A DNA stretch of 64,000 nucleotides from Ignavibacteriota bacterium (GCA_963727825.1 CAVSHO010000009.1:160001-224000); one strand, 5' to 3'. Counted from the stretch's first letter, positions 1-4,094 are shown. The notes: a model not told the origin generated them from the sequence alone. Translations and numbers: made by a program.

Positions 1-163
1 ACTTTAGCTCGCTTTTAGCAAGTTCTTCAAGCTCGCGCTGTTTGGCAATCATTTCCCTGCGCTTGCTCTGGACAATTGCCATGATAAATCCCACGGCAAG
101 CAGGAGAAGCACAAATGTGCCCACGCCTATTGTCCATAATATATTTATTGCGGTATCTGGCAT
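1..163 (-). CDS. N-terminus of a single-TM membrane protein, probably a sensor histidine kinase (runs off the window edge)
   Basis: Manual translation gives MPDTAINIIWTIGVGTFVLLLLAVGFIMAIVQSKRREMIAKQRELEELAKSELK, one TM helix then a coiled coil. No kinase domain is visible in the window, so the function is inferred. Confidence 0.5.
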   Translation of the reverse strand, partial: MPDTAINILWTIGVGTFVLLLLAVGFIMAIVQSKRREMIAKQRELEELAKSELK

Positions 164-180
164 AAAAATTTCTAAAATGA

Positions 181-351
181 AACCTTCCGAAGGGCTGGAA
201 GCCTGATAATGTTGCCCCGCAATGCGGGGCATCTTTTCCATTTACTTCGGAAGGTTAACTTAAACCTACCCGCAGCAGGCGGGGATTCTACGGTAACCTT
301 GTCAAGGTTTAACCTGCCTGCCGTCTTTCTGGCGGGAACCTTGACAAGGTT
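181..351. repeat. Two REP-like inverted doublets
   Basis: AACCTTCCGAAGG (181) / ACTTCGGAAGGTT (244) and AACCTTGTCAAGGTT (295) / AACCTTGACAAGGTT (337), with GC hairpins in the spacers. Confidence 0.75.
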
Positions 352-364
352 ACACGTTTTTGTT

Positions 365-801
365 TTACTTTGCCAATGCTAATGTCTCCATTGTAAATGG
401 AGATGTTTCATCGCAAAATGGTGGACAGATTTCCACTTTTCTCCATAATACTACCTGTTATCATATCTTTTCCCGCGCCATCAACTCCGACAAGCACAAC
501 TGTGAATTTATCATTCTCTTGTGCCCAATACATTTTAATTTTCTCACATCCAGGTTGTGCAAGTATTTTATCAAATGCGCCACGGTCAAATGAAGCACCT
601 TGAGTTTGGGGCGCTTGAGGATTCTTGCGGAAGTTACTGACAAGTTGTAATCCTTCGCATCCAAAGCTGATCTCGTGTTTTTCGGCTCCAATAAATGTTT
701 TATCTTTTGAATCAGTTGCACTTACTTTCGTTCCGATAAAAAATGAAAGCGTACAAATAACGAGGGCAATTACCCCCCCCCCACAATAATAGTTTTTTCA
801 T
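365..801 (-). pseudogene. CPPxC-motif small protein paralog with an N-terminal signal/TM segment; two apparent frameshifts (G10 tract and near the C-terminus)
   Basis: Reconstructed as MKKLLLWGGVIALVICTLSFFIGTKVSATDSKDKTFIGAEKHEIS...KNP...GASFDRGAFDKILAQPGCEKIKMYWAQENDKFTVVLVGVDGAGKDMITGSIMEK/VEICPPFCDETSPFTMETLALAK, colinear with ORF 1547-1879. RBS AAGGAG lies upstream. The ORF track misses it. It may be intact if the indels are sequencing errors. Confidence 0.85.
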
Positions 802-845
802 TTTGCTGCTCCTTTTGTATTGTTTGTTTTTGGTTGATTAAGATT

Positions 846-889
846 ACCTTCCGAAGGTCTCGGCGGATCTGTATTGACCTTCGGAAGGT
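846..889. repeat. REP-like inverted doublet
   Basis: ACCTTCCGAAGGT (846) and ACCTTCGGAAGGT (877). Confidence 0.75.
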
Positions 890-893
890 CAAT

Positions 894-1545
894 TTATACC
901 GGCATTAACCGTTTTGCATAAAAAAGCACGAAGGAAAAAATATACTGCATTACAATAAATACATCATTTAACGGCCAGATTGCTCTGAGCAGTTTTCGGT
1001 TTGATATCAACATTGGGGTAAATAATCCGAAAAAGAAGAATGTGACTACTGCATATAAAACTATTCCTGACAGAACCCAGAAACGAATATCTTTTTTCAA
1101 AACAATATTTGTCTCTTTTATAGATTCTCAGCAATATCCACCCTCCAAAACCGATTTGGATGAGTTGAGCAATTGGCTCAGTATAATTATCCCATCCAGT
1201 AAATGACTCAAAGGTAAATTTTCCGATTATCCAAATTAGCAAATAAACTGCAAATCCAGCCCAAATTAAAAATCCATTTCGCTTGCTTGTTCGCCATAAA
1301 TAAAAAATACATGAGAACAATAATAATTCAATCACTGCAAAACTTTGGCCCATTAAATAAGTATGAATTTTTTTATGAACCATAACATCTATTACTATAT
1401 CGACGATTAATGAGCAAATGATATACCATTCAAGAATCCTAAGAGGTAATGTTAGTTGTTTATATCTTCTTAACCCAATAAATCCTACGACACAAACAAA
1501 AACTTGAGCAGTATATATTGCCACATACACATAATCTAGAGACAT
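894..1545 (-). CDS. Multi-pass (about 7 TM) membrane protein, frameshifted near 1110-1130
   Basis: ORFs 964-1545 and 894-1100 join into one hydrophobic protein (...KKDIRFWVLSGIVLY...). It starts 1 nt after the stop of the CPPxC gene. Confidence 0.75.
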
Positions 1546-1546
1546 A

Positions 1547-1879
1547 CTATGCCTTCAAGAGTTCACTTGTTTCATCGCAAATTGGTGGACAAAACGAACC
1601 TCTCTCCATAATACTTGCAGTCATATCTTTACCAGCTTTATCAACACCAACAAGAACTAAATTAGGTTTGCCATCCTCATCGCGTCCATGATAATATCGC
1701 AAACCTTTACAATCCGGATGGGCAAGAATTTTATCAATTGCTCCACGGTCAAATGAGCCGCCGTGAAGTTTGGGATGGATCGGGTTTTTCTTGTGGCGTT
1801 GTATGTGCTGCTTTGCCTCGTCCAAAGAAATCTCGTGTTTTTCCGCACCCGGAAATTTTGCATCTACTTTTGCAGCCAT
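1547..1879 (-). CDS. Small CPPxC-motif protein of unknown function
   Basis: 110 aa, RBS AAGGAGG, motifs SFDRGAIDKILAHPDC, LVLVGVD and CPPICD; paralog at 365-801. Confidence 0.85.
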   Translation of the reverse strand: MAAKVDAKFPGAEKHEISLDEAKQHIQRHKKNPIHPKLHGGSFDRGAIDKILAHPDCKGLRYYHGRDEDGKPNLVLVGVDKAGKDMTASIMERGSFCPPICDETSELLKA

Positions 1880-2912: not shown

Positions 2913-4094
2913 ATGTATATGAGTTTTATTCAGTCGGTTACAACTATATTTAGGGAAAAATTCAAAGAACAACCCTTATTATTTCGTTCACCCGGAAGAG
3001 TGAATCTTATTGGCGAGCACACGGATTACAATATGGGGTATGTCCTTCCGGCAGCAATCGATAAAGCAATTATTTTTGCAATTACTCCGCGAAGCGATCG
3101 ACAGTGCATTGTGTATGCAATGGACATGAACGATGAGCATGAATTTTCGTTAGATAATCTTCAATTCTCAAAAAAGGGATGGCCGAATTATTTAATGGGG
3201 GTGGTGGATCAGTTAGTCAAAGCGAAGTATAATATAAGAGGATTTAATTGTGTTTTTGGAGGAGACATTCCAATCGGTGCAGGGATGTCGTCCTCTGCAG
3301 CACTCGAAGCAGGTTTGGCTTTTGCGCTTAACTCTATGTTCGATTTACAGATCGATGCACTTTCACTTGTTAAGCTTGCTCAAAAGGCAGAGAATGAATT
3401 TGTCGGTGTTCGGTGCGGCATTATGGATCAATATATAAACATTTTTGGAACACGAGATAACGTCCTTCGTATTGATTGCCGCTCATTGGAATACAAATAC
3501 TATCCGTTTGCTTTCGGCAATATATCTCTCGTTCTCTTTGACACATGCGTCTCGCATTCATTGGCATCGTCAGAATATAACCGAAGAAGAGAAGAATGCG
3601 GCGAGGGAGTAGAAATAATAAAAAATATTTATCCAGATGTGTGCCATTTACGAGATGTATCTATTGAGATGCTGCAAAAATGCAAGAACAAGATGGATCC
3701 GGTAATATATCGAAGGTGTAAATATGTCGTAGAGGAAAACGGTCGAGTGCTTAGTGCGTGCATCGAACTAGAACAAGGAAACTTGAAAGCTTTTGGTGCC
3801 CTTATGAACAAAACACACGATGGATTGAGCCGCGACTATGAGGTAAGCTGCGCAGAACTTGATTATCTAGTAGAGTTGGTCAAGGACAATCCATACGTCT
3901 ACGGTGCGCGGATGATGGGTGGCGGGTTTGGAGGGTGCACGATCAATCTCATTGAACGTCAAGCGGTCGAAGAAGTCAACCAGCGGGTAGCAGAGAAATA
4001 TAAAAAAGAATTTCACATCGACTTAAAGACCTACATTACGTCCATCGATTCAGGAACACATATTATCACAGCGAACGAATATGCAGCAGACTAA
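2913..4094 (+). CDS. galK: Galactokinase
   Basis: PGRVNLIGEHTDYN, PIGAGMSSSAA and GARMMGGGFGG GHMP-kinase motifs. Confidence 0.97.
   Translation: MYMSFIQSVTTIFREKFKEQPLLFRSPGRVNLIGEHTDYNMGYVLPAAIDKAIIFAITPRSDRQCIVYAMDMNDEHEFSLDNLQFSKKGWPNYLMGVVDQLVKAKYNIRGFNCVFGGDIPIGAGMSSSAALEAGLAFALNSMFDLQIDALSLVKLAQKAENEFVGVRCGIMDQYINIFGTRDNVLRIDCRSLEYKYYPFAFGNISLVLFDTCVSHSLASSEYNRRREECGEGVEIIKNIYPDVCHLRDVSIEMLQKCKNKMDPVIYRRCKYVVEENGRVLSACIELEQGNLKAFGALMNKTHDGLSRDYEVSCAELDYLVELVKDNPYVYGARMMGGGFGGCTINLIERQAVEEVNQRVAEKYKKEFHIDLKTYITSIDSGTHIITANEYAAD

Follow-up and report, generated by a model that had tools for sequence, protein, structure and literature searches.

Many bacterial histidine kinases have no sensor domain, and their inputs are often obscure. 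One such kinase begins at the left edge of the window analysed here, a 64,000-nucleotide stretch from an Ignavibacteriota bacterium (GCA_963727825.1, CAVSHO010000009.1:160001–224000, which is G000:C9:160001–224000 in our genome set). How could a kinase with almost nothing outside the membrane receive a signal, and could the genes next to it provide one? Positions 1–1879 hold four co-oriented genes, all on the minus strand: gene A (1547–1879), an intact 110-residue open reading frame (ORF) with an alpha/beta core and an apparently flexible C-terminal tail containing CPPIC-DETSELL; gene B (889–1545), which encodes a seven-helix membrane protein; gene C (365–801), a paralog of A that begins with a hydrophobic leader (MKKLLLWGG..VIALVICTLSFFIGTKVSA); and the start of a histidine kinase, K (1–163). 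The arrangement belongs to a cassette that is conserved in Bacteroidota, and we propose, with chances that we put at a little better than even, that this cassette serves kinases lacking a sensor as an accessory sensing module.

The nature of the kinase could be established from the contig, which is readable leftwards beyond position 1. An earlier reading of the window, made from the sequence only, had suspected a kinase at 1–163 with nearly no extracytoplasmic part and had proposed that HisKA and HATPase domains and a response regulator be sought by extending the contig. The kinase ORF extends to C9:158925 and comprises 438 residues from its first ATG, at position 163, where the protein begins MPDT; an orthologous kinase in another genome, G189, begins with the same four residues. 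The extended protein contains PAS, HisKA (PF00512; E = 1.4e-7, residues 205–263, above the gathering score) and HATPase_c (PF02518; E = 3e-28) domains. It has no extracytoplasmic sensor domain; about eight residues stand ahead of a single N-terminal transmembrane (TM) helix, which is followed by a coiled coil. Both parts of the suspicion were thus correct, but no response regulator adjoins the kinase: the next gene is an 888-residue ORF (G000:C9:156035–158701), whose counterparts in G189 and in G073, a genome of the same genus, are assigned to DUF5916 in Pfam. This DUF5916-like protein is possibly a regulated target of the kinase, or it may simply be a conserved neighbour.

The two small proteins of the locus differ in their N-termini. 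Gene A is leaderless, because only four further open codons precede its ATG, and a distance of 1 nt separates its TAG stop from the ATG at 1545 with which gene B begins. The motifs GAEKHEIS, KNP, SFDRGAxDKILAxPxC, VLVGVDxAGKDM, SIME and CPPxCDETS all occur in both A and C. The common orientation of the four genes, the lack of a leader in A, its tight coupling to B and the motifs of the two paralogs had each been described in the sequence-only reading, and each was confirmed. Judged by the leader, the window locus therefore has both kinds of protein, A inside and C outside.

The cassette is far from unique to this position. A second, intact copy is located on the same contig (C9:614531–617194); it encodes a 123-residue leader-bearing protein ending in CPPWC, a 213-residue seven-helix protein, a 279-residue single-TM kinase of the HisKA_3 type, the gene for which overlaps that of the seven-helix protein, and a 209-residue LuxR-type regulator. 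Profiles of A and B were then run against 401 genomes sampled across the phylum, and the two match tables were compared by hand. The A profile matches 42 of these genomes, including 5/5 in the own genus and 11/17 in the own family, and the B profile matches 88, often in multiple copies, with two large families at 0/87 and 0/61. For at least 60 of the 64 A matches other than our own, a same-strand B match occurs no more than about 1.1 kb away, among the matches listed; one lies in a genome that has no B match, and three are undecidable among the B matches listed. When 29 of these other loci were fetched, B stood beside A in every case, downstream in 28 and in the order B–kinase–A in one. The proposal that the gene neighbourhood is conserved thus holds for both profiles, and chance does not account for the pattern, given that dozens of genomes have this gene order.

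The third member of the cassette is a kinase of more than one class. In 23 of the 29 loci Pfam identifies the gene that follows B as a kinase (E ≤ 1e-5), with HisKA in eight (most with PAS), HisKA_3 in 13 and HATPase_c only in two. The remaining six comprise a divergent kinase found by tblastn only, a truncated 164-residue ORF, a regulator directly after B, a glycosyltransferase on the opposite strand, a contig end and a locus in which no ORF was found. Since HisKA and HisKA_3 kinases both follow B, the A–B pair travels with two kinase classes. The genes for B and the kinase overlap in many loci, a LuxR-type regulator (Response_reg plus GerE) adjoins in 17/29, and four of the kinases are hybrids with a receiver domain. 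Common to both classes is a lone TM helix at the N-terminus, with hardly any residues outside. In 25 of the 27 kinases listed, the strongest hydrophobic stretch within residues 1–110 is one TM helix, which starts 3–38 residues from the called start and has basic residues and a coiled coil after it; for the two exceptions (L042 and L048), the starts were judged to be mis-called. Some cassettes depart from the simple plan: three tandem seven-helix genes stand behind a single A gene at L038 (G189:C7) and at G335:C1:2383807–2386107, and elsewhere, as in L018 and L020, A is present as two genes or as a fused double-A protein.

Genomes with B matches only show which part of the small protein persists. 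Gene calls recovered B in 13 of 16 loci from such genomes, and an ORF of about 260–340 residues with an H-box, identified by regular expression only and not by Pfam, adjoins in 15/16. Of the 12 upstream ORFs printed, eight end in CPxxC despite diverged bodies, and one more contains CPPNF. The Cys tail is the most persistent feature, since it is kept in those eight. These counts also bear on a different assignment of roles, which we consider unlikely: A and C would be outputs, that is, small stress-protective or envelope proteins encoded first in an autoregulated operon in the manner of liaIH, and B would be a LiaF-like negative regulator. Such a role would suit the position of A, always the first gene apart from the one B–kinase–A locus, its frequent duplication or tandem fusion (89 of 224 members have two domains), its occurrence in both compartments and the 46 further genomes that have B and no detectable A (88 versus 42 of 401). 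However, the B-only genomes usually still have a small upstream ORF with the CPxxC ending, and a separation of 1 nt here, together with adjacency in nearly all of the matches counted above, is more in keeping with a stoichiometric partner than with a bulk effector.

We return to A as a candidate partner of B and ask what kind of protein it is. All of 76 A homologues are unnamed or 'hypothetical protein' entries from Ignavibacteriales or from Bacteroidota metagenome-assembled genomes. Pfam and NCBIfam gave nothing consistent for 50 members, PDB sequence profiles gave no match, and the ESM Atlas returned only unnamed Bacteroidota clusters for A as well as for B. The family is large, with 4,068 cluster representatives at 50% identity for E ≤ 0.001 and 1,972 for E ≤ 1e-10. 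Among 224 members in hand, 135 have a single domain and 89 have two tandem domains. The single-domain members divide into 61 with an N-terminal hydrophobic leader, several of which are clear Sec or lipoprotein signals, and 74 with none, a division that fits the earlier suggestion of CPPxC proteins on both sides of the membrane. Of the 135, 134 have the CP..C motif, and the earlier Cys occurs in 70/74 leaderless and 44/61 leader-bearing forms.

The modelled structure of A (pLDDT 76.4) consists of two helices and a four-stranded sheet, followed by a C-terminal tail that is probably flexible, as the confidence of the model is low there. A Foldseek search of the PDB produced nothing at E ≤ 0.001, only weak LOV/PAS rows at a probability of about 0.1. 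A wide fold search with the exhaustive aligner VIA did not exceed Z = 2.8, a CopG row scoring 2.6, and no assignment was made. A relationship with PepSY, suggested by the VDxxGKD motif, found no Pfam PepSY match at E ≤ 0.1 in 50 members and no fold row above Z = 2.8; one member touches NCBIfam TseB at E = 0.0026.

The prominence of the Cys tail raises a further possibility, namely that A gives rise to a signal containing Cys, for example a C-terminal peptide cyclised through a disulfide or thioester, which B processes, exports or receives in an Agr-like quorum circuit. We regard this as quite improbable. The CP(P)xC tail is the most conserved part of A, and a leaderless A would need a dedicated exporter, for which B is the only membrane protein that the cassette provides. 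But A is a folded domain of about 100 residues conserved over its whole length rather than a short propeptide, the leaders of many A forms are of the usual Sec or lipoprotein kind, the neighbourhood of the cassette shows no recurrent peptidase or ABC exporter, and B lacks a conserved Cys/His/Asp/Ser catalytic set, its best-conserved residues being F153, E71, Y162 and W103. Membership of the AgrB/AgrD type was likewise rejected, given the folded domain of A and the lack of a conserved His among the B positions listed.

For B, the candidate input component, we considered the fold, the orientation and the conserved residues. The model of the 218-residue G073 ortholog has seven TM helices with high confidence (pLDDT 92.6, pTM 0.89), in agreement with the approximately seven helices described in the sequence-only reading. 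Pfam and NCBIfam gave nothing consistent for 29 B members: no Pfam family is common to more than one of them at E ≤ 0.1, and PDB sequence profiles yielded only formate/nitrite transporter rows at E of about 0.5. The expectation that neither A nor B belongs to a characterised family was thus borne out in Pfam, NCBIfam, PDB sequences and the ESM Atlas. The best Foldseek rows are all G-protein-coupled receptors (GPCRs), at E = 0.06 or worse, and the top 50 rows from VIA are GPCR-fold proteins (natural receptors, de novo GPCR-like designs and LYCHOS/GPR155) or microbial rhodopsins, the sole exception being an untitled membrane-protein entry (5jsi_A); 190–211 residues are aligned with Z = 10.8–13.5, values which between helical bundles may show a common arrangement only.

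The distribution of Lys and Arg indicates an N-out/C-in topology in all 29 B proteins, with or without a leader on the partner A, and the idea that B flips its orientation when A has a leader was thereby ruled out. Several polar residues are conserved and buried: E71, a mid-membrane Glu in TM3 (23/29), Y162 in TM6 (22/29) and N199 in TM7 (18/29). An FW pair marks the cytoplasmic end of TM6 (25/29 and 21/29), and Cys208 is present in 16/29. Among the 22 best-conserved positions listed from the 29-member alignment there is no Lys and no catalytic-looking His/Cys/Ser set.

From the conserved cassette, the domains, and the modelled fold and topology of B, all of which are observed, we infer the contacts among A, B and the kinase, and the kind of signal, as follows. 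B would be a membrane-embedded input device, which packs against the lone TM helix of the kinase and switches it between kinase and phosphatase states. A would be a co-sensor or modulator that acts on B or on the kinase. Its conserved C-terminal CP(P)xC...SxL tail would dock on B, from the periplasm in leader-bearing forms (gene C here) and from the cytoplasm in leaderless forms (gene A here), and its cysteines would probably report the redox state or bind a metal. The mode of action could be likened to that of SaePQ on SaeS or of LiaF on LiaS, and the cassette looks like an undescribed route by which signals are fed into a two-component system. A bolder version, which we consider rather doubtful, would make B a true bacterial receptor of the GPCR fold with a histidine kinase in place of the G protein as transducer; the Cys-loop tail of A would then enter one of its cavities, as a tethered agonist outside or a transducer-like plug inside, and the cassettes would form a widespread, uncatalogued split-sensor class in Bacteroidota.

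Several observations weigh against the proposed mechanism. The first group concerns the partners of the kinase: the present locus has no adjacent response regulator, as is also the case in G073 and G189, where the DUF5916 gene takes that place, and a GT motif in the kinase TM helix, considered as a docking mark, proved too weak (14/27, plus one GA). The second concerns A. Some upstream proteins have no CPxxC motif at all (L029; L072, L074 and L075), and some leader-bearing forms can do without the first Cys, which 17 of 61 lack. Furthermore, the side of the membrane on which A lies varies from member to member and the topology of B is constant, so that one docking mode cannot serve both forms of A. 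The third concerns the proposed A–B and B–kinase interactions. Searches for longer proteins found no A–X fusions with the A profile and no B–kinase fusions with the B profile, each of which is weak evidence, and an alignment-based prediction of a complex between A and B from G073 gave scores of 0.22 and 0.17 against a mark of 0.32, which is neutral on binding. For the fold of B, the Foldseek E-value of 0.06 and the reservation attached to the VIA scores count in the same direction, and so does the fact that B and C are broken as sequenced in this genome. On the other side stand three outcomes that had been set in advance as refuting ones, namely absence of kinase domains, lack of co-occurrence and a match to a characterised family; the domains are present, A and B occur together, and neither family matches a characterised one in the databases searched.

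The breaks deserve closer attention, as they bear on whether the locus is functional in this organism. The sequence-only reading was right that B is a protein of about seven TM helices and that C is a leader-bearing paralog missed by the ORF list, but it overlooked two frameshifts in each gene. Gene B, reconstructed from a three-frame reading and tblastn against the intact 218-residue ortholog of G073, is in frame until ...GWILLRI and then has one extra base at about 1121; it is one base short at about 935–945, beside an A6 run, and the starting frame reaches a stop codon ahead of this second shift. In gene C, a run of ten G at 773–782 falls within the signal-peptide codons, where the frame would be kept only by nine or 12 G; the intact 144-residue ortholog in G085 reads GGGGAGGG at this place. 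The second break in C is an extra base at 428, and the ORF list misses C because CPPFCDETS is read in a different frame from the remainder of the protein. The poly-G run is an artefact of sequencing or else a tract prone to slippage; a metagenomic homolog, P0070, begins MGGGVIALV, as though its upstream ATG were likewise out of frame.

All four breaks are confined to 428–1121, and public contigs from four runs cover two of the sites, 428 and 1121/1123, with the poly-G run essentially uncovered and the contigs over the second break in B beginning at 935–946 without bridging about 940. A near-identical contig of run X3 lacks the extra base at 428, which restores ...MEKSGNCPPFCDETS. At 1121 the extra base is absent from one contig each of X1 and X4, and at 1123 from a further X4 contig; the same runs also hold contig pieces that are 100% identical to neighbouring stretches. 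Since near-identical contigs lack the extra base at both covered sites, we read the breaks most likely as a local assembly error within 428–1121, or else as very recent decay. The cassette is intact in close relatives.

It is possible, at odds clearly below even, that the locus is instead dead in this organism, B and C being true pseudogenes with only A and an orphan kinase left; this would be orthogonal to the function of the family. Four frame-breaking indels inside 700 nt would suit such decay, no regulator adjoins the kinase, and G073 has no gene C at all. In addition, across 18 kb leftwards, 12 syntenic genes each give one unbroken match to G073 proteins, and the assembly is therefore not generally indel-ridden. 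The contigs without the extra bases argue the other way, as do the pieces of B and C, which are 70–80% identical to intact orthologs and have no stops within their proper frames; the clustering of the breaks in one short stretch would also fit a locally unpolished segment of the assembly.

The intergenic regions and flanks of the locus contain further elements. The spacer between C and the kinase (164–364) contains hairpins, including a perfect 17-nt inverted repeat at 293–309/337–353 and a terminator-like hairpin at 201–184 on the minus strand, and kinase transcription or attenuation may be separate from that of the upstream genes. An Rfam scan of 1–2900 returned two chance-level rows only and no family matching the hairpins of this spacer. 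The palindrome CCTTC[C/G]GAAGG is a REP-like (repetitive extragenic palindrome) or terminator-like element; it occurs 35 times in the 3.1-Mb genome against roughly one to two expected by a rough estimate, and at five sites in the window (183, 847, 878, 32353 and 32388), three of which flank B, C and the kinase. Gene A is directly preceded by an element of about 125 nt with inverted repeats (1934–2058, with inner arms at 1983–1998 and 2029–2044). This element is missing from contigs that join 1937 to 2052 (X1) and 1881 to 2082 (X4) and looks like a small mobile inverted-repeat insertion. Past the upstream spacer, on the opposite strand, lies an ordinary and apparently unrelated 393-residue ORF (2913–4094, plus strand) with a motif, GRVNLIGEHTDYN, which we take to be galactokinase-like.

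The cassette offers a concrete and very common answer, to judge from the B matches in 88 of 401 genomes, for one group of sensor-less kinases in Bacteroidota. It also brings two protein families that are new to Pfam, NCBIfam and the PDB, one of them with the helix arrangement of GPCRs and rhodopsins. Should B be the input device, it would provide a tractable system for how a seven-helix bundle drives a single-helix kinase, and the paired Cys-tailed proteins inside and outside would be a new kind of co-sensor. A keyword search of open-access text found no paper on the cassette, although such word matches could miss an existing description.

Among the closest known systems is SaePQRS of Staphylococcus aureus, in which the lipoprotein SaeP and the membrane protein SaeQ are reported to modulate the intramembrane-sensing kinase SaeS, which acts with the regulator SaeR (PMC3748130, PMC5083920, PMC4388633). 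The likeness is that of an operon of four genes in which a small exported protein and a polytopic membrane protein are encoded ahead of a kinase with essentially no extracytoplasmic domain. There are, however, distinguishable differences. No sequence relation was found, Pfam being empty for A and B; B has seven helices in a GPCR-like arrangement; the regulator is of the LuxR/NarL type; many A forms are cytoplasmic; and the cassette belongs to Bacteroidota. Moreover, SaeS has two TM helices, whereas the cassette kinase has one.

The second comparison is with LiaFSR/VraTSR of Firmicutes, in which a sensor-less kinase is reported to be under the control of an accessory membrane protein whose gene lies directly upstream (PMC3543457). 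The resemblance extends to the pairing of a HisKA_3 kinase with a NarL/LuxR regulator, as 13 of the 23 cassette kinases are of the HisKA_3 class. The cassette differs in that it also couples to PAS–HisKA kinases and includes a Cys-tailed protein. LiaF, furthermore, is not known to be a seven-helix protein.

A seven-helix module that feeds a histidine kinase is known in bacteria as 7TMR-DISM. B is a separate polypeptide without extracellular domains, and no fused forms were found, which is weak evidence of a difference; a direct assignment to 7TMR-DISM_7TM (PF07695) was rejected, as one of 29 members matches at E = 0.072 and none at the cut-off. The likeness with GPCRs and microbial rhodopsins is one of fold only: in the model of B all seven helices superpose with the same N-out/C-in orientation, at 4–12% identity and with no G-protein partner, so that the arrangement is alike and homology is not implied. 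For the rhodopsins, the retinal-type lysine of TM7 is absent from the 22 best-conserved B positions listed, and the helix arrangement alone is common. Finally, MgrB is a 47-residue membrane peptide with Cys that acts directly on PhoQ and modulates this kinase; like A, it is a small protein whose cysteines could couple the redox state to kinase activity, but A is a domain of about 100 residues, either soluble or anchored by a lipid, that is always paired with B. Set beside these systems, the cassette would be, on the evidence of sequence, an accessory-protein-dependent two-component system built from two uncatalogued families.

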